Numbered from the stretch's first letter, positions 4,950 to 43,372 are shown. The stretch is DNA of 64,000 nt from Candidatus Magasanikiibacteriota bacterium (GCA_041666745.1 JBAYGI010000003.1:76782-140781), one strand, 5' to 3'. A program made the numbers and translations. The notes: a model not told the origin generated them from the letters alone.

Positions 4950-6732
4950 TATTCATATTTTTTGAATATTCATCCCTTTTCAAAAACGGAAACATATCTT
5001 CCAAGGGTTTACTATCCATAGTACCATCAGAATTTTTCATGGAATATACTTTTGGAATCAGAGGCTGGAAAGCAGACATATTGATTTCGCAAACAACCGG
5101 CCCCTTACTTTTTAATACTTTATCTATTTTTTTTTCGATACCCTTATGATCTTTTATTCGAGAATATTGAATACCAAAAGCAGCAACTACTTTTCTAAAG
5201 TCTGGGAAACTCACCCCCGAAGAAGGATCGCTCGCTTCTAGGTCGCCGCCAAAAAATGAATTCTGGGTATTTCTGATAGCCAAATAACCTTGGTTGTTTA
5301 ACAAAAATACTTTTATTGGGAGATTGTGATGTTTGATAGTCTGTAGCTCCTGAATATTCATCATGATACTACCGTCACCGGTAATGAGGATGACTCTTTT
5401 TTTGTCATTTGCAAAACAAGCTCCAATCGCAGCTGGCAAATCATAACCCATGGCAGCACAACCAACATTGCTAATCAACCTTTGATTTTTCTTTATTTTA
5501 AAACACTGTAAAGTGGCGGTGAATGATGTACCAACACCAGTCAAAATTATTTCACCTTTTTTCAACAAAGAGGCTAAAACTTCGGTGAAATAATATGAAT
5601 TTACAAAATTCTTTTCATCTTTATACTCTGGTAAAACTACTGGATATTTTTCTTTCCACGCAATACAACGACTAACCCAATCGCTTGAATCTTTCCACTC
5701 ACCATCACTGGTCATGTTTAGTACCTCATTTAAAAAAACCTTGGCATCAATATTAATTGGCAAATCGGGATGAATGGTTTTTTTCGATAATTCCAACTTA
5801 TCAATATCAATAACTATTTTTTTGGATTTTTTGGCAAATTCGTTATAGTTATATCCAATATTCCAAAGATGATGCCGAACTCCAACACTAATTAATAAAT
5901 CACAATTTTGTACGGCAAAATTTCCGGCACGATCGCCAAATACACCTGGCCGCCCAACGCACAAACCATGTTCGCTTGGTATTAAATCATGCGCTGACAT
6001 AGAAGTAACTACCGGAATCTGTAATTTTTCAATAACCTTCATTAAAACATCTTCACCCTTTGCCAACCTAATACCATGACCGATAAATAACAAGGGGCGT
6101 TTTGCTGAATTAATCATTTTTTTAAAATCAGAAATTTTTGGAGACAAACTATTATCAACAAACTTTTCCTCCATGTCCGGTTTAAAACCTAATAATTCGT
6201 CTGTATTTACTATAGCCGATTGAACATCTGACGGTACATCAATGAGTACTGGCCCCGGTCGGCCAGATTTTGCCAAATAAACAGCTTTTTCTAGGTGATA
6301 TCTTATATCTTTTTGATCTAATACAACTACAGCATATTTGGAAATAGTTTTTACCAAATTAGGAGCATCTACCTCTTGAACCCCTAATTGCCTCAAACCA
6401 CTACCCCCGATCATATTGTCCCTTTTGACTTGTCCCGAGATATATAAAACTGGGATAGAATCAAGCCATGCGCCGGCAATACCGGTGATGGTGTTAGTTA
6501 ATCCTGGTCCAACAGTAGCCATACAAACCCCAATATTTTGATTTATTCGAGAATAACTTTCAGCGGCCATAGCTGACGCTTGTTCATGGTGATTGCAAAC
6601 ATATTTTAATTTATTATTTTTGGCTATCGAATCAATCATTTGCACGTTGCAACCACCAGAAATCAAAAAGACGTGCTTTACACCAAGTGTTGAAATAAAT
6701 TTTGCTATATAATCGGATACTTTAATTTTCAT
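4942..6732 (-). CDS. Thiamine-diphosphate-dependent enzyme, acetolactate-synthase large-subunit-like (YerE-like candidate branched-chain-sugar synthase), paralog 1
   Basis: 596 aa. The N-terminus reads SDYIAKFISTLGVKHVFLISGG...CNHHEQASAMAAESYSRI...GVCMATVGPGLTNTITGIAGAWLDSIPVLYISGQ, the ThDP pyrimidine-binding domain. The C-terminal ThDP-binding region reads GDGSIMMNIQELQT. Confidence 0.75.
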   Translation of the reverse strand: MKIKVSDYIAKFISTLGVKHVFLISGGCNVQMIDSIAKNNKLKYVCNHHEQASAMAAESYSRINQNIGVCMATVGPGLTNTITGIAGAWLDSIPVLYISGQVKRDNMIGGSGLRQLGVQEVDAPNLVKTISKYAVVVLDQKDIRYHLEKAVYLAKSGRPGPVLIDVPSDVQSAIVNTDELLGFKPDMEEKFVDNSLSPKISDFKKMINSAKRPLLFIGHGIRLAKGEDVLMKVIEKLQIPVVTSMSAHDLIPSEHGLCVGRPGVFGDRAGNFAVQNCDLLISVGVRHHLWNIGYNYNEFAKKSKKIVIDIDKLELSKKTIHPDLPINIDAKVFLNEVLNMTSDGEWKDSSDWVSRCIAWKEKYPVVLPEYKDEKNFVNSYYFTEVLASLLKKGEIILTGVGTSFTATLQCFKIKKNQRLISNVGCAAMGYDLPAAIGACFANDKKRVILITGDGSIMMNIQELQTIKHHNLPIKVFLLNNQGYLAIRNTQNSFFGGDLEASDPSSGVSFPDFRKVVAAFGIQYSRIKDHKGIEKKIDKVLKSKGPVVCEINMSAFQPLIPKVYSMKNSDGTMDSKPLEDMFPFLKRDEYSKNMNNV

Positions 6733-7476: not shown

Positions 7477-8231
7477 AGATCATTTAAGAATTTATACTCT
7501 CTGTCATTGTCCAAACACTGCCAGAAACCACTATGATGGTAAATTTTTAATTGGCCAGTGGTAGATAATTTTTCAAAAACACTATTATTGTGCTCAATTG
7601 AACATTCGTCAAAAGTAGTTAAATAATTAAAGATACTTTGTCGTAGAACTATAAAACCACCACTAACAACACCAGCCAAGCTATTTAATTTGGAAACCGG
7701 ACTATAAAATATTGATGTGTCGTTTTTTAGGACAAACTCACCATAGCGAAAGGGAGGCAAAACTCCAGTGACAGTGACAGAAAGATTGTGATTCTTGTGA
7801 AAATCTAGAAGTTTATTCAAATCTAAATCTGACAAACAATCAGCATAAGTGGCAAAAAAATCACCTTCATCTAAATATTTTTTACAACGGTACAGACGAG
7901 CACCCGTACCCGCCGATTCACCCGTATCAACGAAAGTTATTTTCCAATCATTTTCTTGGTTGGATGTTAGATGTTCTACCTCCTGATTAGAATTTTTTAA
8001 ATCCAAAACAACATCATTAGTATTGCGATTGTAATTAAAAAAATAATCTCTAATCGACTCTCCCCCACTACCCAAAGCGAGCACAAAATCTTTGTGACCA
8101 TATTTGGCAAAAATTTTCATTACATGCCACAATATTGGTTTACCGGCAATTTTAATCATAGCTTTTGGCACAAAGCTATTCATATTTTTTAAGCGCATCC
8201 CTTGTCCACCACAGAATATTACGGTTTTCAT
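7443..8231 (-). CDS. Glucose-1-phosphate cytidylyltransferase-like nucleotidyltransferase (RfbF/DdhA paralog 1)
   Basis: MKTVIFCGGQGMRLKNMNSFVPKAMIKIAGKPILWHVMKIFAKYGHKDFVLALG, the NTP-transferase signature shared with RfbF. 262 aa. Confidence 0.7.
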   Translation of the reverse strand: MKTVIFCGGQGMRLKNMNSFVPKAMIKIAGKPILWHVMKIFAKYGHKDFVLALGSGGESIRDYFFNYNRNTNDVVLDLKNSNQEVEHLTSNQENDWKITFVDTGESAGTGARLYRCKKYLDEGDFFATYADCLSDLDLNKLLDFHKNHNLSVTVTGVLPPFRYGEFVLKNDTSIFYSPVSKLNSLAGVVSGGFIVLRQSIFNYLTTFDECSIEHNNSVFEKLSTTGQLKIYHHSGFWQCLDNDREYKFLNDLCDKNCAPWLV

Positions 8232-20921: not shown

Positions 20922-23012
20922 TCATTTTTTCTTAGCATTTAAAGCTGCAGCAGGCATAGAAATTTGGGCAAATACACTTTTATCTTGATCAGTCAAAACC
21001 GCATTATTCTTTGTGGCTAAGTCCAAAACTTCTTTCATCTTTTTTTCATCACCAGTCATTTTGTAGGTATAAGCTAACCTCCAATAACTTTCACCTATTC
21101 TAGGATTATCCAGAATGGTCTGTTCTAACATTTTTATCGCCTCAGCTGGTTTGTTTATTTGCAGCTTTATACCAGATAAACTATAAATAATCTGTTGTCT
21201 TTTTGGAGATTTTACTAGAGCATCTTCAAGTACACTTTCAGCTTTAACTAAATATATACTATTATTATTCATGGTCGCCTCCAATTGATACATCTGAGCC
21301 AAAGTCAACTGATTGCGAATATCCAAAGGATGTAATATTAAATTTTTTTCTAAATGATTAGAAACTACCGTTAACAACTCATTTGATTTGTCTTTTCCTA
21401 TTTTTTGCCAACCACTATTTAAAGATTGGACTACCGAACGACCAATATCACTACGAATATCATCAATATGAGGTGAAGTAAATTCTAACGCTTCTTTCGC
21501 TACCGGTAAACCGGCTATAGGGTCAGTCATTAAAGCACGAATGGCATTTAGAGTTTTTTGATTAGCTCGCGCCGGTTGGATATTAAAAATAAAAATCAAC
21601 AAAAAACATAACAACCCACAACTGGTTAAAACTCCATTACCGATTTTTTTATCTAGTGTTTGGGGTGGTACCGTCTGGATTCCCGCTTTCGCGAGAATAG
21701 CAGTGTTTGGATTCCCGCTTTCGCGAGAATGACAAGCTATAGAGCTGATTAATGATAGCCAAAAAAATAAATAAACATAGGAAGTCGGATCTTCAAAAAC
21801 AGTAATTACACCAACAAAATGCGCTGCTATAAAAGCTCCACCAATTATCATAAAATGACAATCGATTGTTTTTTTACGATAAGATGATATCAACCCAATA
21901 ATCGCTACTGCAAAGACACCCAGATAAACCAACAATCCAAAAGCACCCTGAACAGCCATAGTATTTACCACAATATTGTGAGCGTTATCAAACCAAGTTT
22001 CACCATAACCAAAATCCAACGATTTTGGATTATAATGCTCATTAAAAGCGTAGAAATAATTATTTGGCCCCCAACCAAAAATTGGTTTTTCTTTCCAGCT
22101 TTCTATGGCAATTTGCCAAGCGACCCATCTAGGACTTGCCTGTACATCACCAAGAGATGTATTGACCGCTCGACCAACTGCTGGGATATTTTTTACAAAA
22201 GATGTTTGTTTAAAAGCATAGAGCAGAGAAATAGCTACTATTCCTAATATGGTTACAGCCAATAAGCTATAACGTATTTTAGGATATTTTTTTAACACCA
22301 CAATATACCCTATCAGTGCAAAAGCCATTCCAGCCACTAAACCCAACATCGTGCCTCGATTGGCACTCCAAAACATCCCCATAAAACCAAAAAAACCCAC
22401 CGCACCGTAAAACCATTTCCACAAAGTATTTTTTTCACGAGTAAATAACAATATTGACAAAAACATCAAAAACAATCCGTAACCACCAACATAAATTGGG
22501 TTTCCTAATGTACTACTCACACGCGTTGATCCCTGATTCAGCAATAGATCAGGCATCTGAGTTTGTAGCCAAGCAATAAACATCACCAAAAATCCACCAA
22601 CTAAAAATATTCTACCGGCCCATTTCCAATCCTTCCAATCTTTTAAAACACCGGCACATACGAAATAAAACGAAACATAATGCAACAGAGTAAACAACCC
22701 CAACATGCGTTCATGATTATCCCAAAAACTATGGTAAACATCAGTACCAACAAAAGTAGACACTGCAAAACTTAATAAAAATAAAAATACCGCAATATTT
22801 AAATAATTAAATTTTGGTTTGTATTGTTGCCAATTAATAGCTAACAACAACACATATAGTACTACTATAATTTCCACCAACGAACGAAAGAAAATAATCT
22901 TTGGGACGATAAACGGAAAAATATATGAACTCGGAAACACTAATAGGGGCACGAAAAATACTGCGTAAATAAGCCATTTTATCACCTGTTCGATTTTTTG
23001 TTTCATAAACAT
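20922..23012 (-). CDS. O-antigen-ligase/polymerase-like (Wzy_C-type) polytopic membrane protein with a C-terminal TPR-repeat domain
   Basis: 696 aa. An N-terminal ~420 aa with about 10-12 TM helices includes the loop WDNHERMLGLFTL. An extra TM follows, then a C-terminal soluble TPR-like region (LAYTYKMTGDEKKMKEVLDLA). Confidence 0.55.
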   Translation of the reverse strand: MFMKQKIEQVIKWLIYAVFFVPLLVFPSSYIFPFIVPKIIFFRSLVEIIVVLYVLLLAINWQQYKPKFNYLNIAVFLFLLSFAVSTFVGTDVYHSFWDNHERMLGLFTLLHYVSFYFVCAGVLKDWKDWKWAGRIFLVGGFLVMFIAWLQTQMPDLLLNQGSTRVSSTLGNPIYVGGYGLFLMFLSILLFTREKNTLWKWFYGAVGFFGFMGMFWSANRGTMLGLVAGMAFALIGYIVVLKKYPKIRYSLLAVTILGIVAISLLYAFKQTSFVKNIPAVGRAVNTSLGDVQASPRWVAWQIAIESWKEKPIFGWGPNNYFYAFNEHYNPKSLDFGYGETWFDNAHNIVVNTMAVQGAFGLLVYLGVFAVAIIGLISSYRKKTIDCHFMIIGGAFIAAHFVGVITVFEDPTSYVYLFFWLSLISSIACHSRESGNPNTAILAKAGIQTVPPQTLDKKIGNGVLTSCGLLCFLLIFIFNIQPARANQKTLNAIRALMTDPIAGLPVAKEALEFTSPHIDDIRSDIGRSVVQSLNSGWQKIGKDKSNELLTVVSNHLEKNLILHPLDIRNQLTLAQMYQLEATMNNNSIYLVKAESVLEDALVKSPKRQQIIYSLSGIKLQINKPAEAIKMLEQTILDNPRIGESYWRLAYTYKMTGDEKKMKEVLDLATKNNAVLTDQDKSVFAQISMPAAALNAKKK
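21677..21730. repeat. Two tandem copies (32-bp period) of the imperfect hairpin unit GGATTCCCGCTTTCGCGAGAAT inside the ligase-like CDS; related to the hairpin at 45831-45850
   Basis: Read directly: 21677-21698 and 21709-21730 are identical 22-mers. The stem is attcccgc/gcgagaat and the loop is tttc. Confidence 0.6.
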
Positions 23013-23087
23013 AATTTATAATAAAATAAAATTTTATACTTATAAATTATACTATCTTCATCCAAAAAGGTCAATAAACAAATACAA

Positions 23088-23114
23088 AAACCCACCCCCT
23101 GAGAGGGTGGGTTT
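23088..23114 (-). terminator. Rho-independent terminator of the 1239-aa surface-protein gene
   Basis: AAACCCACCC-ccugaga-GGGUGGGUUU 10-bp stem, followed on the minus strand by a T-rich tract (ttgtatttgttt). Confidence 0.65.
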
Positions 23115-23154
23115 AAGTTTGCGATTTTTAGTCGCGACAATTCTTAACTAAAGA

Positions 23155-26100
23155 TTAGTTAGCAATTGTTACACCAGTAACTGTGGTGACACCAGGGATA
23201 CGTAGAGCATATTTAGGAGTAGCACTATTACTACCACTATCTGTACCATCTGCGTCTGTCCATGTGACAGCAGCACCAGCAGCATCGTTTGATTCTGAAG
23301 TGCCGTCCAATCCAACCATACTAACAGTAACTGCAGAATCACCAGCGATAGTAGCAGTAAAGGTTGGAACAACTTTTACTAAGAAGTATGCGGTAACTGC
23401 ATTACTAGAATTTGGAGTAATCTTATAGTCTGTTCCATATAAACTACCAAAGGTCATATAACCTGGGGTACCTGGAGTATATGCAGAAGTACTGGTAGCG
23501 ACCGCGGAACCACCAATTCTTTCTAGTGTAGCGGTTAAGTCAGTAATCCTTGAACTGGTTGCAACTTGAAACTTCATGTTACTGATCGCAAACTTAAGCG
23601 CAGAACCGTCAGAATTTGTATTACCAGTTGCTGGTAATGTAATTGCAACGATAGCAGCGTTTGTACTTTGACCACTATACAATTTGGTAGCAAGAGCGGT
23701 AGAACCGTAAGAAGTTGGTAGCGACACAGAACCAATCTTAGTGGCAACTATACCAGCAACCTTAGAAACAGCTGTTTGATTTACAGTACCTACTTCATAG
23801 CCAATAGTACCAGCATCATTGCTTGTGCCATAAACTAGAGTATAACCAGAGCTTATACCTTCAGCTGTAGCAGCAGCAGCTCTCCAAGTAGCAGTCTTAT
23901 TCAACAAACCAGCCTTATCTTGACCGATTGGTAAATAATTTACTTTCAATGTGTAATATTTTTGACCAGAAACTGTGAAATCTTGATCCAATGTAGATGT
24001 AGTAGCACCAACTTGAGTAGTATAAGCTACTTCAGTGTCACCGTCATACAATGAAACGCGAGAAACAGATCCGGACATATCAGCACTTGAAACAATTTTT
24101 AACTGAGTTACTTTGACATCTTCGTTACCAGCTTTAAATTTAAAGGTAGCAACTGGAACGCCATTTGTACCAGCCAAATTGTATGTATCGTATTTGGTAG
24201 CATCAATAGTGTTATCTACTGCGATATCCAAATATCCGTAACCACGAATGGTCACTGTGCGAGCAGAAGTGAAAGCACTAGTAACAACAACGCCATTTGA
24301 ATCACCATCGATAGCAGTATCGTACACAGCTGTACTCTTTAGAGTTTCTTCAGCTCCATAATTACTTAGTTCCCATTGCATGGATTTATTATTCTGATTT
24401 ACATCATTTACAAGAGAAGTAACTAACTTATAGCTAGCTGTTTGATCAGCTTTAATCAATTCACTCAAATCGTTAAAGGAAATCTTGTAAGTTGCCAAAT
24501 CATTTGCAGAAACAGTCTTTATTAGGTCAGTGCCTTTATAAAGTTTGAACTGAGAAACAACAGATTTAGTAGATGTGGACAGAGCATCACGGAATTCCAA
24601 AGATGTTACTTTCACATCAGAAGCAGTACTAGCTTTGATGTTGAAGTTCAATACTTCCACATCTTGAGTACCTACAACAGCGTTGTAAGCAGCTGATAAA
24701 GCATTCTTGGAGAAAGACAATGAAGAAGTTTCAACAGAAACTTTGTTCAAAGATACAGAGTTTGGAGTGATGTCTGTAACCGTTGTGTCGTTACCAGTCT
24801 CTTTCAAGACCATATCGCCACCGGCGGCATCAGCTATAGAAACAGTGTAATCGCCAGTAGTAGCTGTGGATTTGGTGTCGCAGCGAACTACAAATTCATA
24901 TGTAGTACCACTGGTCAATACCAAGCCCATGCTTGCATTCTTGTAAACACCATTACCGGTAGATGATGTGAGATCATATACAGTATTGGTATTTTTTAGA
25001 TATACTTGGAAGTTCTCAATTTGAGAACCAGCAGGATCGTTTGTTGAAGCAACAGTCAATTTCAAAGTAGAAAGTTCAGTAGTTTTACCACTGTTTACAG
25101 TAATTTTGAAAGTACCTAATTCAACATTAGTTTGACTTTTGTTCAATTTAGTAACAGTAGCATTTACTTTTACGATAGATACTGCACCAGCAAGGATTCG
25201 TAATGTATCACCTGTAAATGTACCGGCCATTTTAACTGGGAATTTGTAATAATTTCCAGTTGCAACTAAGTCGGCGTTGTTATCAAGTATCAAGTTTAAG
25301 TCCTTGCCAGCACCGGAAACAGCGTCAGCTTTCACTGTGAAACTCTTTGTAGCATTCTTCACGATTGTTACAGGAGTAGTCAGGTTGAAAGTAACGTAAC
25401 GATTTGTCATAGCAGCTGCGGTAGCTACTACAGCGCCATCAACAGACAATGTATAATTTACATAATCTGTATCAGCAATAGTACTATTTGTACTATCCTT
25501 TTTCAACATGATGGAGTTGAGAGTTACGTCTTCGTAGTTATTGTTAGCTAATTTCAGTTTAGCAACAGTTCCTTGAACATCACCAAGTTTAACATCGGCC
25601 AAAGTGCCGTTGGTAGAAATGGTAAGAGTAGCTGTGTTTACAGTAGAACCTGTTTGTTCATTACCAACGATTGGGAAAGAACCACCAACAGATACATTTG
25701 CAGTGACATCAGCAGCAGCATTCAAAGACAATGCATAGTGACTTACCATAGCATCAAGAATAGTAGCTTTTACTACTACAGTCTCTGTTGTACCTTTCTT
25801 AACTACCAAAGGAGTAGTGAAGTTGATCTGAGCAACTTTGTTTGAATCTACATCACGAGATGTGCCGTAGCGTACACCTTTGTTCAAGATGGTAACAGCA
25901 TCAATATCAGTATAAGTACCCAAACCGGCAGCGCTCAATTTGATACCGGTAACATTGACATCATTGTCGTTACTAGCAGCCAAATTTAGAATCAAAAATT
26001 CTACAGATGTGTTATTTGGTACATTTCTAGCAACTGGAGTAGTCGCAGCCAAAGAAACAGTCAAAGCGCCTGCAACAATAGCTGGTCCAGTTGTAGTTAC

Positions 26101-26874
26101 TACCGGGCCCGCAGCACCCTGTGTGCGATCAACCAAAGTAGCTACAGCAGCTTCAACCTTAGTACCAACGGTATAACCGGTAGTAGCGGCCAAAGTCTGA
26201 GCAAACTTAGTTTGGAAGCGATTTGCTGTCAAACCAGTAGCTGTTACTTCTTGTAAAGCTTTGTTTGCACCTACTACATAGTAAGTAGTACCAACTTTTA
26301 CCAAAGCGCCTTCCAAAGGTTCATTTACAGTCACTTTGGCAGGAACGGTAGTTGGTTGTAATTGGGAATAGAAAGTCCAAGATGGATCATCCATAGTAAT
26401 GGTGAAACCACCTTTGGCTGGCATCTTGGCATAGTTTGCACCATATAGAGCTTTGGCAACTTCAGCAGAAACTTCTACTAATTTGTTGCCTGGCAATACG
26501 GCGTATACATTGTCAGTAGCCTGTTGTTTTACCAAGTAAGTACCTGGGCGAGGTAAAATGGCAGTAGCAGACTTCAAAGAAGTCATACAAGCTTGATTGA
26601 TAGTCTTGTATGAATATTTGTTGTCGCCAGTCCATGATTTGAAGATATCACCTTGTGGGAAGTAAGATTTTGTCTTGTCAGCATTTACAGCATAGATTAC
26701 TGGGGAAACAGTAGTCTTCACCAAATCTCCAGCAACCAAAGTGGCGCAATCAGTCTCAGTAGCAGCATTAGCTACGGCTGGTACCAATGCGGCAACACCT
26801 AGGGACCAGAAGATAGTAGTGGCTACAACGCCAACGGTAAAAATCTTCTTACCTAATTTTAATAAATTGTTCAT
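23155..26874 (-). CDS. Large secreted Thr/Val/Ala/Ser-rich cell-surface protein (S-layer/adhesin-like, predicted beta-rich repeats)
   Basis: 1239 aa. The N-terminal signal peptide MNNLLKLGKKIFTVGVVATTIFWSLGVAALVPAVANA is followed by a low-complexity T/V/A/S/G-rich sequence throughout. No enzymatic motif recognised. Confidence 0.55.
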   Translation of the reverse strand: MNNLLKLGKKIFTVGVVATTIFWSLGVAALVPAVANAATETDCATLVAGDLVKTTVSPVIYAVNADKTKSYFPQGDIFKSWTGDNKYSYKTINQACMTSLKSATAILPRPGTYLVKQQATDNVYAVLPGNKLVEVSAEVAKALYGANYAKMPAKGGFTITMDDPSWTFYSQLQPTTVPAKVTVNEPLEGALVKVGTTYYVVGANKALQEVTATGLTANRFQTKFAQTLAATTGYTVGTKVEAAVATLVDRTQGAAGPVVTTTGPAIVAGALTVSLAATTPVARNVPNNTSVEFLILNLAASNDNDVNVTGIKLSAAGLGTYTDIDAVTILNKGVRYGTSRDVDSNKVAQINFTTPLVVKKGTTETVVVKATILDAMVSHYALSLNAAADVTANVSVGGSFPIVGNEQTGSTVNTATLTISTNGTLADVKLGDVQGTVAKLKLANNNYEDVTLNSIMLKKDSTNSTIADTDYVNYTLSVDGAVVATAAAMTNRYVTFNLTTPVTIVKNATKSFTVKADAVSGAGKDLNLILDNNADLVATGNYYKFPVKMAGTFTGDTLRILAGAVSIVKVNATVTKLNKSQTNVELGTFKITVNSGKTTELSTLKLTVASTNDPAGSQIENFQVYLKNTNTVYDLTSSTGNGVYKNASMGLVLTSGTTYEFVVRCDTKSTATTGDYTVSIADAAGGDMVLKETGNDTTVTDITPNSVSLNKVSVETSSLSFSKNALSAAYNAVVGTQDVEVLNFNIKASTASDVKVTSLEFRDALSTSTKSVVSQFKLYKGTDLIKTVSANDLATYKISFNDLSELIKADQTASYKLVTSLVNDVNQNNKSMQWELSNYGAEETLKSTAVYDTAIDGDSNGVVVTSAFTSARTVTIRGYGYLDIAVDNTIDATKYDTYNLAGTNGVPVATFKFKAGNEDVKVTQLKIVSSADMSGSVSRVSLYDGDTEVAYTTQVGATTSTLDQDFTVSGQKYYTLKVNYLPIGQDKAGLLNKTATWRAAAATAEGISSGYTLVYGTSNDAGTIGYEVGTVNQTAVSKVAGIVATKIGSVSLPTSYGSTALATKLYSGQSTNAAIVAITLPATGNTNSDGSALKFAISNMKFQVATSSRITDLTATLERIGGSAVATSTSAYTPGTPGYMTFGSLYGTDYKITPNSSNAVTAYFLVKVVPTFTATIAGDSAVTVSMVGLDGTSESNDAAGAAVTWTDADGTDSGSNSATPKYALRIPGVTTVTGVTIAN

Positions 26875-27108
26875 AGTTATAGTTAATATATCTCATTGTT
26901 TTGCGCGCGTCATATAAATACAACGGTCAAACGCAATGAAATTTGTATTCCGACTCATCTACCGAAAGGCAAATTGAATCGAAATACGTACAAAAGTTTT
27001 GCAAGTTCATATTGAACCCTCGACCTAAGGCAAAACTGTATTTAATTTTTTCTCTCTCCGGGAATAATAACGTCACTAGGCGACACAATCATTCCCCGAA
27101 AAAGAAAC

Positions 27109-28434
27109 TTATTTTATTTTTGGTTTAATATCTGAAACATTTGGAACTATCACTTTCAAAGCAGGCACTGTGGTGGATGTGGCCGGAACTATAATTACTT
27201 TGATATCTTTTACATCTACAGCGTCTTTTTTGAGATCAGTAGCCGCAATAATTGGAGCTACCGGCACCAACTTTTGAACATCGTTTACCATTTGATCAGA
27301 AATTTTTTCTGCTTCTTTGGTGGCGGTGTTGGCCTCTTTTACTTTTTCCATTACTTTTGTGAGGTCGCCTTTGCTGAGTGCATCTACCGCTTCAGTGACT
27401 TTCTTGTCTACATTATCTGTCACGGTTTTGTTTTGCGCGGCGGCATCATTGGTAACACTGGCCACTTCGGAAATTTTCAAATTGAGAGCAACAGTCGAGG
27501 TAGCGCTAGTCGCCGGTTTGGTGGCCAAATCTTTGGCTTCGATTTTGGCGGCAGTGACTACTGCTTGAACACCCGCTACGCTTTGTTTGGACTGTTGCGC
27601 GTCTGTGGTAGCTGATTGGAGAGTATTGTTGATCTCTTGTTTCACTTCTTCTACCGATACTGTCTTATCCCCTTCCAGATGTTTGGTAACAATCACTTCT
27701 ACCGCTTTTACCGAAACATCCTTGGCCAAATCCTTGGCTTCATTGATAGCGATAGCATTTTCTTTGGTGGAGCTGGTGTCATTGATATTGGAAGTGGTGA
27801 GCAATGTCGCCTTTACTTCTTCTAGGGTATTTTTTACCTGTTCAGTGTCTTGTTTGACATCTTTTACTACATCAGCTGATACCGCATTGTTTGCCGATGC
27901 AATTTTTATTTCTTCCAAATTTTGGTTAACATTGGCTATTTCATTTTTTAAATCTTGGATGGATTCTTTTACTTTTTCTTGTTTTTGAGGATCTTTGCTG
28001 GCTACCAATTGTTTGGTTTCCGAAGCGCGACGTTTGGCAAATTCAGAATGTAAAATGGTTTCACTTTTTTTCGATCCGATCATACCGGCGACAGTCACCT
28101 GAGTTTTTTCACTGGCGCGTTTGGCTGGATACAAAAAGTCACCTGGCAAAGCATTGTAGGAGGCGTCCACACTGGCTACCCAACCGCTAGTCGCTACTAT
28201 AGATACTACCAATAGGACAGCAATCGGACGAACTACATTGAATACCAAAGCGCGTGGCACAAACAATGACATGGTGTTCCAGATGCTATCGAAGTTTAAT
28301 TTTTGGACTTCCGGAGTAACGGTGTTTTTTATTTGGGATAGCAAAAGCGCGCGGTTGTTTTCCAACCACTCTTGTCGAGGTTTCACTTCCCCGTGCTTGA
28401 GCTGTTTAAGTTTTGCAATTAAATCTTGCGACAT
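27109..28434 (-). CDS. Membrane-anchored putative anti-sigma-factor-like protein (DUF5667-like)
   Basis: 441 aa. A cytoplasmic N-terminus and one TM (PIAVLLVVSIVATSGWVA) are followed by the motif ALPGDFLYPAKRASE and a long A/K/E/T/V-rich extracytoplasmic tail. It lies 5 nt downstream of the ECF sigma gene. Confidence 0.45.
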   Translation of the reverse strand: MSQDLIAKLKQLKHGEVKPRQEWLENNRALLLSQIKNTVTPEVQKLNFDSIWNTMSLFVPRALVFNVVRPIAVLLVVSIVATSGWVASVDASYNALPGDFLYPAKRASEKTQVTVAGMIGSKKSETILHSEFAKRRASETKQLVASKDPQKQEKVKESIQDLKNEIANVNQNLEEIKIASANNAVSADVVKDVKQDTEQVKNTLEEVKATLLTTSNINDTSSTKENAIAINEAKDLAKDVSVKAVEVIVTKHLEGDKTVSVEEVKQEINNTLQSATTDAQQSKQSVAGVQAVVTAAKIEAKDLATKPATSATSTVALNLKISEVASVTNDAAAQNKTVTDNVDKKVTEAVDALSKGDLTKVMEKVKEANTATKEAEKISDQMVNDVQKLVPVAPIIAATDLKKDAVDVKDIKVIIVPATSTTVPALKVIVPNVSDIKPKIK

Positions 28435-28439
28435 ATAAC

Positions 28440-28997
28440 TTAACTTTTTCCCAATATTTCTTTTAATTTTTTTAACGCGCGATGCAATGTAACTCGAACC
28501 GCGATCTGTCCTTTGCCGGTGATCTCGGCGATCTCTTTGATCTCGAGCTCATCAACATATTTTAATGTCAGAACTTCCTGATATTCTTGTTTCAATTTTT
28601 TGATCGTTTGAATGATTTTTTCGGTTTCCATTTTATCACCAAGTTGTCCGTACCATTTTCCACTGTCACTCACTTCGGTATCTTCATATATAGGTACTTC
28701 ATTTTTGGTTGTGCGCGCTCGATAAAAATCTATAATACTGTTACGCGCGATGCGATAAAGTAAACCGCTAAAACTTTTTACTTCTGACGCGGAGTCTGTA
28801 CCGCCTATCAGATATTGCCAAACTTTGAGAAATACTTCCGATGTTACATCTTCGGCATTTTCGTGACTGCCAACCTTAAAAAAAACGAACCGATAAATTC
28901 GTTTAACATATAGATCGTAAAGTTCAGCGTAGGCATCCGTATCTTTCTTTGTATAGATCTTGTAGAGAAGAATCTTCTCTTTAATAACGTTTGACAT
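28440..28997 (-). CDS. ECF-type sigma-70 family RNA polymerase sigma factor
   Basis: 185 aa. Region-2-like YVKRIYRFVFFKVGSHENAEDVTSEVFLKVWQ and region-4 HTH VLTLKYVDELEIKEIAEITGKGQIAVRVTLHRALKKL. Confidence 0.8.
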   Translation of the reverse strand: MSNVIKEKILLYKIYTKKDTDAYAELYDLYVKRIYRFVFFKVGSHENAEDVTSEVFLKVWQYLIGGTDSASEVKSFSGLLYRIARNSIIDFYRARTTKNEVPIYEDTEVSDSGKWYGQLGDKMETEKIIQTIKKLKQEYQEVLTLKYVDELEIKEIAEITGKGQIAVRVTLHRALKKLKEILGKS

Positions 28998-29132
28998 TAT
29001 AGAAGACGAGAGAAAGTTAAAAGTGTTACACTTACCTATCGATGTAGTCTAGCCTGCCAAAAGTGATAATGCATATGATAGCAAAAAAGGGGGCGGTGGT
29101 CAAATATTACTTTTTCAAACTTTGAAACGCTT

Positions 29133-29264
29133 CGTATAATTTGTGACTCGTTTTGCTCTGGCTCTGAACTCGCCTGAGGGCTCAAACAGCAGAGCCAGCG
29201 ACGCAAAATTCGTCTACAAATTATTACTCAGCTTTTTCAATGTTTTCAAAAATAATATTTATTA
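29133..29264 (+). ncRNA. Copy A of a ~130-nt conserved noncoding element (candidate structured cis-regulatory RNA / repeated leader module); copy B is at 41843-41977
   Basis: About 75% identity to 41843-41977. Shared blocks are AATTTGTGACTC...CTCTG.CTCTGAACTCG...CAAACAGCAGAG.CAGC.ACGC...GTCTACAAATT...TTTTCAATGTT...AATATTTATT. The compensatory change is CTGGCTCTG/CAGAGCCAG (A) versus CTGACTCTG/CAGAGTCAG (B). Confidence 0.4.
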
Positions 29265-29290
29265 TTTGTATAGACTAGTGTATACAAACT
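29265..29290. promoter_or_regulatory. Operator-like 28-bp imperfect palindrome, site 1 (TTTGTATAGACTAGTGTATACAAACT)
   Basis: The inverted copy is at 29383-29410. Each is palindromic about ACTAGT except for a symmetric G/C pair. Confidence 0.5.
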
Positions 29291-29382
29291 TCGGGTAATT
29301 GACCATCTAGCCGATAGGTCAGAATAGCAGAAAATTGACTTGTGGTCAATAGATGGGCTTGACAAAACTCCAAAAATCTGGT

Positions 29383-29410
29383 AGTTTGTATACACTAGTC
29401 TATACAAACT
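29383..29410. promoter_or_regulatory. Operator-like palindrome, site 2 (AGTTTGTATACACTAGTCTATACAAACT), the exact reverse complement of site 1
   Basis: It lies ~20 nt downstream of a TTGACA box (29359-29364) and ends 2 nt before the ATG of the HTH gene at 29413. Confidence 0.5.
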
Positions 29411-29412
29411 TT

Positions 29413-29748
29413 ATGGAAGACCAAAAAATTACAACTCCGACTGCAGACCAAAAGCCCAAAGAAATGATTCGAGTGTCTATTTCTGAGGCGGCGCGTTTAT
29501 TTGGGGTAAACTCACAAACTATCCGTCGGGCTATCTCTGCACAAGAAATCACCTATGTTATTGTGTCCGGACGTTACAAAGTAAATTTTGAAAGTTTGGT
29601 GAAGTGGTCACAACACCACACAACCGTCAAAAACAAACTGGCCAATAAAGGGATCGGGCAATTCGTAGAAAAATGGAAAATTAAAAATCCTCTCTACTCC
29701 CCCAACCCAAAATCACTTAATGTAAAAAAAGATGAAATCCCTCAATAA
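29413..29748 (+). CDS. Small helix-turn-helix DNA-binding protein (excisionase/AlpA-like HTH_17-type), probable autoregulator
   Basis: MEDQKITTPTADQKPKEMIRVSISEAARLFGVNSQTIRRAISAQEITYVIVSGRYKVNFESLVKW. The start is moved from 29353 to the internal ATG 29413. The longer form would read through the operator palindrome and the TTGACA box. Confidence 0.5.
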   Translation: MEDQKITTPTADQKPKEMIRVSISEAARLFGVNSQTIRRAISAQEITYVIVSGRYKVNFESLVKWSQHHTTVKNKLANKGIGQFVEKWKIKNPLYSPNPKSLNVKKDEIPQ

Positions 29749-31600: not shown

Positions 31601-31702
31601 CACCACGCACATATAACCACCTTTTCGCTTTTTTCAGCCGCGAGGCTGAAAGGATGAGCCTCGGCTCATAACCCGCTCAAAGGTAACTATATGTGCGTGG
31701 TG
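31601..31702. repeat. Structured intergenic repeat, copy 1: conserved two-hairpin core nested in a 15-bp outer inverted repeat, between convergent genes
   Basis: Outer IR CACCACGCACATATA (31601-31615) / TATATGTGCGTGGTG (31688-31702), flanked by an A-run and a T-run. Core TTTTCAGCCGCGAGGCTGAAAGGATGAGCCTCGGCTCATAACCCGCTCAAAGG. Confidence 0.6.
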
Positions 31703-39339: not shown

Positions 39340-39403
39340 ATTTTTGCTTTTTTTGCCCGCGAGGGCAAAAGGATGAGCCTCGGCTCATAACCCGCAAAAA
39401 CAT
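39340..39403. repeat. Structured intergenic repeat, copy 2 (between the GT4 gene and the convergent methyltransferase gene)
   Basis: TTTTTTTGCCCGCGAGGGCAAAAGGATGAGCCTCGGCTCATAACCCGC. Outer IR TATATTTTTGC / GCAAAAACATA. The 3' end is truncated relative to copies 1 and 3. Confidence 0.55.
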
Positions 39404-39427
39404 AACTTATCCCGATTTTTTTATATT

Positions 39428-40138: not shown

Positions 40139-41731
40139 ACAATTGAAGAAAAAATTATCCTAGACTGTTATAAAAAACAGCCCAAAGACGCGGAGGCGCT
40201 CAATAGTATTAAGCGTCGAATTTTACGTACCGAAAAACCCGGTTACATCCCTACTTCCACCCAACTGCTTAAAGCATATCACAAACTGGTCAAACAAAAC
40301 AAGATAAAGATTAGTCCACAGCTCGAAAAAAATCTTTTGCGCCGAGCCGTACGGACTTTGTCTGGGGTGACTATAGTGACGGCGCTCACCAAACCGTTTC
40401 CTTGCCCCGGACAGTGTGTCTACTGCCCTACCGAAGCCCGTATGCCCAAAAGCTACCTATCAGACGAACCAGCCGCGGCTCGAGCTTTGTCTTTGCAGTT
40501 TGATCCTTACGAACAGGTCGCTCGCCGTTTGGATAGTCTGGAAAAAAACGGACATCCGACCGACAAAATAGAACTGATTGTAAAAGGTGGCACTTGGAAC
40601 GCTTACCCAATAAAATATCAATACTGGTTTATCGCTCGTTGTTTTGAGGCTTGCAATCATACCAAAAAAACTATCGTATCCGAAAAAATGTCTTTGGAAG
40701 AACTGCGAAAAAAGATGATCAAAATTCAAGCTAAAAACGAACTGGCCAAACATCGAATTATTGGTTTGACTTTGGAAACCAGACCCGACTTCATCAATGA
40801 AAAAAATATTACTGACATGCGTAATCTGGGATGTACTCGCGTGGAAATGGGCATACAACATACTGATGAAAATATTTTGAAATTAACCAAACGTGGACAT
40901 GGAGTAAACGAATCCGTGCAAGCCAGCAAACTTTTACGAAAATATGGTTTTAAATTGGATTATCATCTCATGCCACAACTACCGGGGAGCACTCCCAAAA
41001 AAGACCTCAACATGTTACGTAAAATATTTTCCGATAGTCGTTTTCGTCCGGACATGATTAAAATTTATCCATGCACGGTCGTAGAAAATTCCGAACTATA
41101 TTCTTGGTTGGCTGAAAAAAAATTCAAACCGTATTCAGACAAACAATTATTAAAAATTCTCAAAGAATTTAAATCAGACGTGCCATATTATGTTCGAATT
41201 TCCCGTTTGATTCGAGATATCCCTTCCAATCATATTAAGGCGGGAAATATGATGACCAATTTGCGTCAAGTTATCCAAGCCGAAATGATCGCCGAAGGTA
41301 AAAAATGTTCATGTTTGCGCTGTCGAGAAATTGGACATCAAAAACCAATTGATTGGTCCAAAGAAAAAATAAAATTCTTTATCGATATATACGAATCCAG
41401 TGACGGCACCGAATATTTTTTAAGTTTTGAAAACACTAAACGCAGTGCAGTGTTGGGTTTTTGTCGTTTACGTATCGATAAAAATGGAATCTATCCGGCC
41501 TTTATACGCGAATTGCATATCTACGGACAATCACTTGAAATAGCCCAGAAAGAAAAAGGTGCCAGCCAGCACACCGGACTGGGTAAAAAACTGATGCAAG
41601 CGGCAATAAAAATTTGTAAACAAAATAAAATACCGCGCTTGGCAGTAATTTCCGGTGTTGGGGTGCGCGATTATTATCGTAAACTGGGAGCAAAGTTGGA
41701 AAATACTTATATGGTGTTTGACATTAAATAA
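40133..41731 (+). CDS. ELP3-family radical-SAM / GNAT acetyltransferase (bacterial Elongator-protein-3 homolog, tRNA-modification candidate)
   Basis: 532 aa. Radical-SAM CxxxCxxC is present as CPGQCVYCP. A C-terminal GNAT fold follows (GLGKKLMQAAIKICKQNKIPRLAVISGVGVRDYYRKLGA). Confidence 0.65.
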   Translation: MQTIEEKIILDCYKKQPKDAEALNSIKRRILRTEKPGYIPTSTQLLKAYHKLVKQNKIKISPQLEKNLLRRAVRTLSGVTIVTALTKPFPCPGQCVYCPTEARMPKSYLSDEPAAARALSLQFDPYEQVARRLDSLEKNGHPTDKIELIVKGGTWNAYPIKYQYWFIARCFEACNHTKKTIVSEKMSLEELRKKMIKIQAKNELAKHRIIGLTLETRPDFINEKNITDMRNLGCTRVEMGIQHTDENILKLTKRGHGVNESVQASKLLRKYGFKLDYHLMPQLPGSTPKKDLNMLRKIFSDSRFRPDMIKIYPCTVVENSELYSWLAEKKFKPYSDKQLLKILKEFKSDVPYYVRISRLIRDIPSNHIKAGNMMTNLRQVIQAEMIAEGKKCSCLRCREIGHQKPIDWSKEKIKFFIDIYESSDGTEYFLSFENTKRSAVLGFCRLRIDKNGIYPAFIRELHIYGQSLEIAQKEKGASQHTGLGKKLMQAAIKICKQNKIPRLAVISGVGVRDYYRKLGAKLENTYMVFDIK

Positions 41732-41842
41732 CAAACCTCGCTATTTGCCTGTCTATTACCGGCGTGGTAATATAGATACTAACGATAAATATTACATATG
41801 ATCTAAAAATAAATATTTCCCTTCACTCACAGTGAAAATACT

Positions 41843-41977
41843 CGGTAAATTTGTGACTCACTCGGCTCTGACTCTGAACTCGTCGCTTGACGCTCCTCAA
41901 ACAGCAGAGTCAGCCACGCCTCGTTTGTCTACAAATTTTACCTCATATTTTCAATGTTCGTTCAGGAAAATATTTAT
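41843..41977 (+). ncRNA. Copy B of the ~130-nt conserved noncoding element, immediately upstream of glyA
   Basis: See copy A (29133-29264). It ends 25 nt before the glyA ATG. Confidence 0.4.
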
Positions 41978-42001
41978 TTTTTTCTTAATTTTTACAATAT
42001 T

Positions 42002-43249
42002 ATGTATACACATACTTTGAGTGAGTTCGATCCGGATGTTTTGAGCAGTATTAAAAAAGAACAACAGCGCCAAGAAGAAGGACTGGAAATGATTCCTTCG
42101 GAAAATTTTGTTTCGCCGGCGGTTTTGGAAGCGCTCGGATCTGTATTGACTAATAAATATTCTGAAGGCTATATTGGAAAAAGATATTATGGTGGTTGTG
42201 AATTTATTGATGAGGTAGAGCAATTGGCGATTGATCGCGCTAAACAACTGTTTGGAGCTGAACATGTCAACGTTCAACCGCTTTCCGGCGCGCCGGCCAA
42301 TATTGCGGTGTATTTTGCGTTGATGCAACCTGGCGACACAATATTAGGGATGGATTTGTCTCATGGCGGACATTTGACCCACGGACATCCGGTAACCTAT
42401 ATGGCCAAAGTTTTTAATTTTATTCGTTACAAAACTGACGCGGAGGGAAAAATCGATTTGGACAATTTACGACAAATTGCAATCGAGCACAAACCAAAAA
42501 TTGTTTTAGTTGGATACAGCGCCTACTCTCGTGAAATCGAATATGAAAAAATAAAAGCTATCGCCGATGAAGTCGGCGCGATTACTATGGCGGATGTGGC
42601 TCACATCGCCGGACTGATTGCGGGAGGAGTTATGAATAATCCAGTGCCAATTTTTGATGTGGTTACCACCACCACCCACAAAACATTACGCGGTCCGCGC
42701 GGTGGTATGATTATGTGTAAAGAAAAATTTGCCAGCGCTATCGACAAAGCAGTTTTTCCGGGTCTCCAAGGTGGTCCACATGAAAACAATATTGCCGCCA
42801 AAGCGGTTGCTTTCAAAGAAGCTTTGTTACCTGAGTTCAAAGAATACGCTGTCCAAATAAAAAAGAATGCCAAAACATTGGAAGAAGAATTTAATAAATT
42901 GGGATACAAATTATGTTTTGGAGGCACCGACAATCATTTACTGTTAATTGATGTAACTATAAAAGGCATTGGCGGAAAACAAGCCCAAATCGCCCTAGAC
43001 AAAGCCGGCATTACAGTAAATAAAAACATGATCCCCGATGACACCCGCTCACCATTTGACCCATCAGGCATTCGTCTGGGCACACCAGCCCTCACCACTC
43101 GCGGGATGAAAGAAAATGAAATGTGTAAAATTGCGATTTGGATAGATGAAGCGATTTTAAATTATAATAACGAAGAAAAACTAGCTGACATAAAAAACCA
43201 AGTAAAAGAACTAACAAAAAACTTCCCGTTATACCCAACCATAAAATAA
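42002..43249 (+). CDS. glyA: Serine hydroxymethyltransferase
   Basis: [30 protein letters not shown]...[12 protein letters not shown]...[14 protein letters not shown]. Start assigned to ATG 42002 ([14 protein letters not shown]). The upstream 16 codons of the track ORF overlap the conserved element. Confidence 0.9.
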
Positions 43250-43280: not shown

Positions 43281-43372
43281 GTAGCGATAGATGGTCTTTG
43301 AGCGGGTTATGAGCCGAGGCTCATCCTTTTGCCCTCGCGGGCAAAAAAAGCGAAAAGACTATCTATCACTAC
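43281..43372. repeat. Structured intergenic repeat, copy 3 (reverse orientation), nested in a 16-bp outer inverted repeat between glyA and pyk
   Basis: Outer IR GTAGCGATAGATGGTC (43281-43296) / GACTATCTATCACTAC (43357-43372). Core GAGCGGGTTATGAGCCGAGGCTCATCCTTTTGCCCTCGCGGGCAAAAAAA is the reverse complement of the copy 1/2 core. Confidence 0.6.

Follow-up and report, generated by a model that had tools for sequence, protein, structure and literature searches.

Two related stretches of DNA in a Candidatus Magasanikiibacteriota genome are, in the reading that we favour with moderate confidence, copies of a widespread family of non-coding, non-autonomous foldback (long-hairpin) mobile elements. 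Both lie in one window, by which we mean the whole 64,000-nt stretch of DNA that was analysed, and we refer to them as copy A and copy B. The element is conserved and structured, it occurs in many copies, it is found with duplicated targets and in filled and empty sites, and it is located at gene ends. According to the mechanism that we propose, it would spread within genomes, with recent insertions landing at intrinsic-terminator palindromes and duplicating the entire stem-loop, which would imply that an extruded hairpin or cruciform is broken in a staggered way at both of its feet. The invariant tip of the hairpin would be a cis-acting site that is read in a folded single-stranded state, either as a DNA hairpin or cruciform or as an RNA copy, by a trans-acting factor, and this factor would be encoded away from the element. 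The original prediction had taken the two stretches for a 5' leader RNA upstream of glyA and of an HTH gene, or else for a small RNA gene duplicated together with its promoter.

The two copies share 79% mean column identity over about 200 columns (alignment of 29100-29300 with 41810-42010), and their similarity, earlier put at about 75%, is real. The 64-kb window holds exactly two matches to the pattern CTCTGAACTCG-N(5-30)-CTCAAACAGCAGAG, 100 dinucleotide shuffles hold none, and neither mismatch searches nor two covariance models found a third copy anywhere in the window. Over the extents first assigned to them (29133-29264 and 41843-41977) the hairpin folds of the two copies have z = -4.2 and -4.6. 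These extents give the correct location and too short a length. When 75-nt flanks are included, copy A folds with -53.5 and copy B with -56.5 kcal/mol and the pairing extends outward, so that each copy is an imperfect hairpin of ~160-180 nt, reaching on the plus strand from about 29102 to 29260 in copy A and from 41805 to 41981 in copy B. The R1 covariance model matches 29102-29254 with 153.7 bits and 41812-41968 with 140.3 bits. The feature first described as a small 3' hairpin belongs to the outer arms, of which it forms the 3' half, and it pairs with sequence 5' of the start then chosen; the shared AATATTTATT, at which the match had seemed to end next to the gene, is the outermost stem and no gene-proximal signal. 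The compensatory pair noticed between the copies (CUGGCUCUG/CAGAGCCAG versus CUGACUCUG/CAGAGUCAG) is genuine and is one among many: in a set of nine CPR-type homologues, 15 of the 33 predicted pairs carry double changes that keep the pair. The view of a conserved, structured, covarying and non-coding element is supported, and both copies indeed share the strand of the downstream gene.

The conserved part of the element is the tip of the hairpin, which reads CUG-AACUC-[variable mini-hairpin]-(C)UCAAACAG-CAG. The apical module built around it occupies 29155-29201 (plus strand) in copy A, where the cross-phylum core model R2 scores 38.7 bits (E = 1e-7) and the exact pattern matches as well. In copy B it occupies 41865-41916 (plus strand), as judged by the R2 match (34.1 bits, E = 2e-6), the pattern match and a comparison of P2 subtypes. 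A 9-bp closing helix, P1, is formed by CTGGCT+CTG / CAG+AGCCAG in copy A and by CTGACT+CTG / CAG+AGTCAG in copy B, and the 5' junction strand J1 is AACTC in both. The mini-hairpin P2 is GCCTGAGGGC in copy A, followed by the junction strand J2 TCAAACAG (exact core 29164-29192); in copy B, P2 is GTCGCTTGACGCTC, a subtype shared with another CPR genome (L004), and J2 is CTCAAACAG (exact core 41874-41907). On the 3' strand P1 is followed by a bulge, CGAC in copy A (29202-29205, plus strand) and CCAC in copy B (41917-41920, plus strand).

The anatomy of the module was compared in 56 sequence-distinct families among the matches listed, anchored on the invariant core. The six P1 positions outside the CUG/CAG are Watson-Crick paired in 86% of cases, versus 30% with shuffled partners, and all four pair types are seen at every one of these positions. 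Pairing ends after 6+3 bp with an abrupt stop at the seventh position, and hence P1 is always 9 bp long. It is followed by a pyrimidine-rich 3' bulge of 4-6 nt, whose position is conserved in all 56 families and after which the next helix (P0) resumes. The internal loop is asymmetric, with the two near-invariant strands 5'-AACUC and 5'-UCARACAG (13 nt), and non-exact relatives recovered with the core model show which positions can vary and leave AACUC and UCARACAG as the invariant strands. P2 can be as small as two base pairs and a triloop or as large as a 14-bp hairpin, and where the copies of a genome are otherwise near-identical they vary most in the P2 loop. The arms outside the module are lineage-specific and imperfectly complementary. 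Judged by these alignments, the predicted structure is as well supported as comparative data allow, and the same data would fit a folded molecule of RNA or of single-stranded DNA.

The tip motif is widespread in bacteria. Scanning one genome per species for the exact pattern CTGAACTC-N(3-33)-CTCAAACAGCAG gave at least 119 stretches in at least seven phyla, often many per genome; as this search used the exact motif, the breadth is a lower bound, the invariance of the motif is an upper bound, and ascertainment accounts for part of the universality that the core seems to have. Among the matches listed, the hosts belong to the CPR, the Clostridia, the Bacteroidota, the Beta- and Gammaproteobacteria, the Desulfobacterota, the Myxococcota and the Margulisbacteria. 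They include, again among the matches listed, Patescibacteria (Magasanikbacteria, Kazan and others), Clostridia (Anoxynatronum, Tindallia, Thermoclostridium, Blautia and Lachnospiraceae), Bacteroidota (Flavobacterium, Draconibacterium, Perlabentimonas and Parabacteroides), the gammaproteobacterium Thiomicrorhabdus, the betaproteobacteria Pseudazoarcus, Variovorax and Achromobacter, as well as Desulfobacterota, Polyangiaceae and Margulisbacteria. Hairpin arms surround the motif in about 104 of the 119 stretches among the matches listed, and the remainder are chance matches in coding sequence. A BLAST search of plasmids with the core added Variovorax, Paraburkholderia, Butyrivibrio, Parabacteroides and the megaplasmids of Ralstonia solanacearum, the last with 2-13 copies of an unannotated ~240-nt unit, and a metagenome scan with a CPR-specific pattern added three usable copies. 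The motif is absent from E. coli. A phage origin was considered and rejected, as an IMG/VR scan returned seven chance matches in coding sequence, none with a hairpin, and BLAST against phages returned nothing. Several genomes hold at least 10 near-identical copies, which contain no ORFs; in Thiomicrorhabdus, Anoxynatronum, Flavobacterium, Draconibacterium and Clostridiaceae the copies of one genome are near-identical over 200-560 nt. As a separate matter, the taxonomic labels 'uncultured Gammaproteobacteria' and 'Candidatus Udaeobacter' are probably wrong for several contigs (L004, L014, L064 (contig CAYHBZ010000002.1); L093; P0052), which have elements of the CPR type, the HTH operator seen in CPR, or an SHMT with 85% identity to that of the window.

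As far as checked, the element is undescribed, since it matches no family of Rfam 15 (4227 models). At the gathering score there was no match over the element, and the window yields a tRNA-Val only. A permissive E-value scan of both copies stayed below the threshold, with lactis-plasmid (E = 0.033, 26.7 of 70 bits) as a spurious match. No family covered the element in 18 related loci from six phyla, and eight related loci searched at E <= 1 returned generic miRNA-hairpin noise only. The ZTP/pfl, THF and glycine riboswitches, which had been singled out for such a check, are thus not assigned, nor is any other known family; of the undescribed leader motif that had been suggested, the first word holds within these searches and the second does not. 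Exact-sequence and keyword searches of the searchable literature found neither a name nor a description of the element. Several known structures were compared by their descriptions and set apart, those of them that are in Rfam being also unmatched there: the hammerhead, twister, pistol and hatchet ribozymes, and SRP, 6S, boxA/boxB, the sigma-54 promoter, attC and dif. The multicopy sRNAs FopS/GibS of Bacteroides are different, being 65-70 nt long with a single-stranded seed and a terminator and present in Rfam, and the PG_RS02100/DUF4248 transcript of P. gingivalis is unrelated.

Evidence for mobility comes from Anoxynatronum, where a ~205-nt unit with sharp boundaries is present in 11 copies. 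All 11 are flanked by a direct duplication of 15-27 nt that spans a copy-specific intrinsic-terminator stem-loop, and in the eight cleanest pairs the duplication (19-27 nt) comprises the whole stem-loop plus one to four flanking A/T. Alignment places these flanking duplications, which differ from copy to copy, outside the repeat unit. The duplication is therefore a target-site duplication as long as a hairpin and a footprint of transposition, demonstrated in this one genus. Its length points to breaks at the two feet of the palindrome, with insertion right after the terminator stem and in a fixed orientation to the transcript. All 11 copies are co-directional with the terminated transcript, and hence their sense strand is probably transcribed. 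The T-tract is mostly lost from the left terminator copy and intact in the right one; since the left copy has no U-tract, read-through RNA should contain the motif. The termini of the unit (GAGGTTGAAGAC... and ...TCTACAGTCTG) are not inverted repeats, and hence the element is no classical MITE derived from a DDE-type transposase.

Other hosts show other outer sequences. Thiomicrorhabdus and Draconibacterium have the hairpin embedded in larger units of ~560 nt that end in terminal inverted repeats and for which no parent IS was seen. Unlike those of Anoxynatronum, CPR copies (L036, 7795-7820 / 7895-7920; L135; L137) are flanked by perfect inverted repeats of 20-27 bp, which differ from copy to copy and lie beyond the arms, themselves older and imperfect; these foot repeats could equally stem from insertion into pre-existing palindromes or from outward growth of the palindrome. 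Tail-to-tail pairs of hairpins (plus, then minus) that are 200-400 nt apart occur in Ralstonia, Variovorax, Parabacteroides, an Eubacteriales genome and several CPR, and are bounded on the outside by small 12/13-6-12/13 palindromes such as CTCACTTTCTTTG-tcttgc-CAAAGAAAGTAAG. Palindromes of 12/13-6-12/13 bp have the geometry of a tyrosine-recombinase core site. Paired-hairpin loci include a Parabacteroides distasonis plasmid (plasmid 9; L122, 1415-1975), the Ralstonia GMI1000 megaplasmid (L120, 1350-1830) and the CPR loci L042 (2340-2800), L026, L093, L114 and L063. In the Parabacteroides pair a gene for a 'smalltalk' mini-protein (NF033879) lies between the two hairpins, and in CPR a ~430-nt composite adjoins unrelated genes in different genomes.

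A second line of evidence comes from the site of copy B: the window carries the element there, whereas three close relatives have an empty site. On one side of copy B a radical-SAM/GNAT (ELP3-like) gene ends at 41731, on the other glyA begins with its start codon at 42002, and the element sits between the conserved -10-like box of glyA and this start codon. The SHMT of the window is 100% identical to a protein encoded in a Candidatus Magasanikbacteria (CPR) genome. The site that received the insertion is the conserved ATATGATCTAAAAA at 41791-41804 on the plus strand, located by a promoter scan and by alignment of filled and empty sites. It contains the promoter-like hexamer TATGAT (41797-41802), and the promoter scan calls TAGATA-18-TATGAT. 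We compared the orthologous loci of the three closest relatives (L123/L124, L125/L126 and L127), whose SHMT is 93, 92 and 91% identical. All three keep the radical-SAM/glyA gene order and the ATATGATCTAAAAA box, which lies about 7-65 nt upstream of the glyA ATG within an intergenic spacer of 83-148 nt. By site alignment the element is absent upstream of glyA in all three, and covariance models found no copy anywhere in 85 kb of the relatives' glyA loci. Since the element is missing in the relatives, copy B is an insertion/deletion polymorphism inside the glyA 5' region and no conserved leader. The same spacer holds a ThiD2/TMP-TENI gene on the minus strand in two of the three relatives (L123, 8916-9917; L127, 8868-9869), which is absent from the window (41731-42002) and from L125, and the spacer between the radical-SAM gene and glyA has thus been remodelled more than once. 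In our reading copy B would be an insertion, or the survivor of a deletion elsewhere, between the -10 box and the ATG of glyA, and it would either lengthen the glyA leader by a hairpin of ~180 nt or displace the glyA promoter. Both window copies would be old, being ~79% alike, and are probably immobile relics.

Copy A lies in the divergent spacer between a gene for an ECF-type sigma factor (28440-28997, minus strand) and an HTH_17 gene (about 29413-29748, plus strand). Another Magasanikbacteria genome (L036), syntenic with window positions 21334-29288 at ~70% nucleotide identity, carries an orthologous copy A at the same site and in the same orientation. A related genome (L027) has the orthologue of the sigma-factor gene with the element at the same site, there with the whole element, arms and tip, inverted, which we count as further evidence for mobility. 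Copy A would have been inherited together with the sigma/HTH spacer. The promoter region of the HTH_17 gene is bracketed by a feature of its own, a pair of near-perfect palindromes (TTTGTATAGACTAGTGTATACAAAC and a variant) at 29262-29289 and 29384-29411. They are 100% conserved over 25-27 nt in L004 (6100-6248), also occur in L036 (about 7950-7980), and probably serve the HTH protein as its operator. The hairpin element of L004 is 3 kb away from them, and the two features are hence independent.

Where the copies lie relative to genes was counted for 65 of them among the matches listed, on crude ORF calls: 25 are between convergent genes, 19 in tandem and co-oriented, 13 in tandem and anti-oriented, and 8 between divergent genes. 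Copies prefer the 3' ends of genes; divergent spacers are rare, and any orientation occurs. They are dispersed and not arrayed, and a bias for one replication strand, as judged by GC skew, is not significant (53 versus 37). The neighbours examined are ordinary housekeeping genes. All-against-all clustering of 1460 locus ORFs gave generic superfamilies only and no recurrent neighbour family, and Pfam showed no transposase, integrase or reverse transcriptase among the neighbours of the copies examined; no transposase turned up in the 119 flanking regions covered. As no protein family recurs beside the copies, the element is non-autonomous. Against mobility it counts that neither a mobilising enzyme nor an autonomous master copy was found.

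The alternative that survives best is a structured RNA module that acts in transcripts, by binding a protein or by catalysis, for instance as a new motif of self-cleavage or processing. The long stem would then merely present the invariant loop, and the module would hitch-hike on various repeat elements or have been spread by them. We regard this explanation as rather improbable, although the module itself speaks for it: a 13-nt invariant loop and a fixed helix length are met more typically in functional RNAs than at the ends of transposons and count against the mobile element, and the positioned bulge, the free choice of P2 and the heavy covariation fit as well. The co-directionality of the Anoxynatronum sense strand with the upstream transcript (11 of 11) points the same way, as do the arm mismatches, which on the sense strand are pyrimidine-pyrimidine in 190 and purine-purine in 85 cases, and the hypervariable loop of P2 among near-identical copies, which resembles peripheral RNA loops. 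However, G-U pairs on the sense strand are not in excess over A-C (38 versus 58), and orientation in tandem contexts is nearly random (19 co- versus 13 anti-oriented). Convergent (+/-) pairs are common, and hence half of the motifs in any one transcript would be antisense. There is no likeness to any Rfam ribozyme or RNA family. Neither a conserved promoter nor a conserved terminator was found, and consensus scans of both copy regions for an own promoter or terminator did not rise above shuffles; a small RNA gene duplicated with its promoter, as the original prediction had it, therefore finds no support.

We consider it less probable still that the element is an extragenic palindrome like REP/BIME that serves its host and owes its amplification and retention to a use at gene ends, be it as a 3'-UTR stabiliser, as a bidirectional terminator or as a binding site for a nucleoid or replication protein. 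Such a role would agree with the enrichment at gene 3' ends and between convergent genes, with the T-rich tracts that follow long hairpins (for example at 41982-41995 of the window) and with the presence of other terminator-associated repeats in the same window. The conservation of copy A at an orthologous site, where the genes are ~70% identical, counts against mobility and also fits a host function. Known REPs, by contrast, are lineage-specific and have no motif that crosses phyla, and a stabiliser or terminator needs no invariant asymmetric loop. Moreover, both window copies lie upstream of genes, copy A in a divergent spacer and copy B 5' of glyA, positions at which termination would be detrimental, and a terminator scan found none in either window region.

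Other small repeats share these surroundings. A second conserved family, ~67 nt long, forms two small GC hairpins (CAGCCGCGAGGCTG and ATGAGCCTCGGCTCAT) and has copies at window positions 31622-31688, 39341-39407 and 43297-43356 (minus strand) and at 5772-5839 of an unrelated metagenomic CPR contig (L137). Each copy lies directly 3' of the stop codon of a gene, and the window copies are 84-87% identical to one another and to the copy in that contig. At 21672-21734 the window holds two tandem copies of a small hairpin repeat, GGATTCCCGCTTTCGCGAGAAT(G/A), which matches another Magasanikbacteria genome (L080, 7796-7828) at 100% over 27 nt. Similar 'GTCAT...hairpin' repeats (GTCATTGCGAG... and GTCATCCTGACGATAGGAAGGATCTC) crowd the flanks of the element in Flavobacterium and Clostridiaceae loci.

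A cis-regulatory 5' leader, that is a riboswitch controlling glyA and the HTH gene, is very improbable and already contradicted by the relatives' empty glyA sites and by the gene-context counts: that both window copies lie on the strand of the downstream gene, that the structure is stable and covarying and that glyA is riboswitch-regulated in other phyla would favour it, but the element is missing upstream of glyA in the three nearest relatives, is inverted in L027, adjoins unrelated genes in every orientation and mostly at their 3' ends, is multi-copy with target-site duplications, has no match in Rfam and shows no evident alternative terminator/anti-terminator in the folds of the window copies.

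Taking the element as a mobile foldback repeat, we place it among the interspersed palindromic mobile repeats: like REP/REPINs and MITEs it would be a small extragenic palindrome that is mobilised in trans, and it lacks features that define them. With the REP/REPIN elements (RAYT, Y1 HUH) it shares that it is a short, non-coding extragenic palindrome that forms hairpins, has many copies per genome and lies between convergent genes, and that it is non-autonomous, the REP enzyme being encoded by a single-copy gene elsewhere. However, REPs are species-specific and conserved at the foot (a GTAG tetranucleotide and stem), whereas here a tip of ~25 nt is conserved across phyla including the CPR. The element has no conserved GTAG foot, and its conservation at the tip argues against membership in REP/REPIN. 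We also know of no hairpin-wide target duplication for REP/REPIN.

Bacterial MITEs (Correia, ERIC, RUP, SPRITE, Nezha) are likewise multi-copy, non-coding sequences of 100-600 nt with long stem-loops, insertion polymorphism and target-site duplication, and the TIR-bounded ~560-nt units of Thiomicrorhabdus and Draconibacterium resemble them further. A MITE descends from a cognate IS, with which it has its terminal repeats in common, and it duplicates a fixed short target of 2-10 bp. Here, in contrast, the duplication is a whole terminator hairpin of variable length (15-27 nt), the Anoxynatronum ends are no inverted repeats, no IS came to light as a parent, and what is conserved lies in the interior, within outer sequences that are unrelated to one another. 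The element is thus small, non-coding and multi-copy as a MITE is, and it shows a filled/empty polymorphism and a target duplication, the latter unusually long and of variable length. No terminal inverted repeats in common with an autonomous IS were seen.

A third likeness is to attC, to attP(+) of the CTX phage and to the end hairpins of IS200/IS605, all of them imperfect hairpins of 60-150 nt that conserve structure over sequence and in which bulges have fixed positions, the terminal structure varies and one strand is specifically used. In these substrates an enzyme reads the folded single-stranded state, and we propose that the same may hold for the element. attC differs in being conserved at its base (R''/R' boxes, RYYYAAC/GTTRRRY), and these boxes are absent from the lineage-specific bases seen here; nor are copies of the element found in cassette arrays or near an integrase. 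IS200/IS605 elements make no target duplication, and their hairpins lie on one strand at both ends. Two further systems offer mechanistic analogies only. Group IIC introns target terminator stem-loops in a fixed orientation to the transcript; the present element is far too small and contains no intron domains, as there is no Rfam group II match. Cas1-Cas2 and casposases make a staggered attack at the borders of a palindrome, which duplicates the whole palindrome. Neither a Cas1 nor a reverse-transcriptase gene is associated with copies of the element, in contrast to Cas1-Cas2 and group IIC systems.

More tentatively, the apical module may be an unrecognised functional motif of pan-bacterial range, which we consider possible rather than probable. 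It could be a new small ribozyme or processing signal, or else the recognition hairpin of a DNA-structure-specific transposition pathway whose attack on the feet of terminator cruciforms would leave the whole stem-loop duplicated, in bacteria from the CPR to the Proteobacteria and Bacteroidota. There is a substantial chance that the module is mechanistically new. To our knowledge, interspersed palindromic repeats are normally confined to one species or genus, while here an almost invariant 13-nt loop and a fixed helix geometry recur in at least seven phyla.

For the host of the window, the finding means that copy B has remodelled the 5' region of glyA compared with its closest relatives. It also bears on annotation: conserved, covarying hairpins upstream of metabolic genes in CPR bacteria can be mobile repeats and not riboswitches. 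For the family as a whole, the motif points to a conserved partner, be it an enzyme or an activity at the level of RNA. The discovery of this partner could reveal a new mechanism of transposition or RNA processing and would make sense of a class of unannotated 'long hairpins' that thousands of genomes carry.
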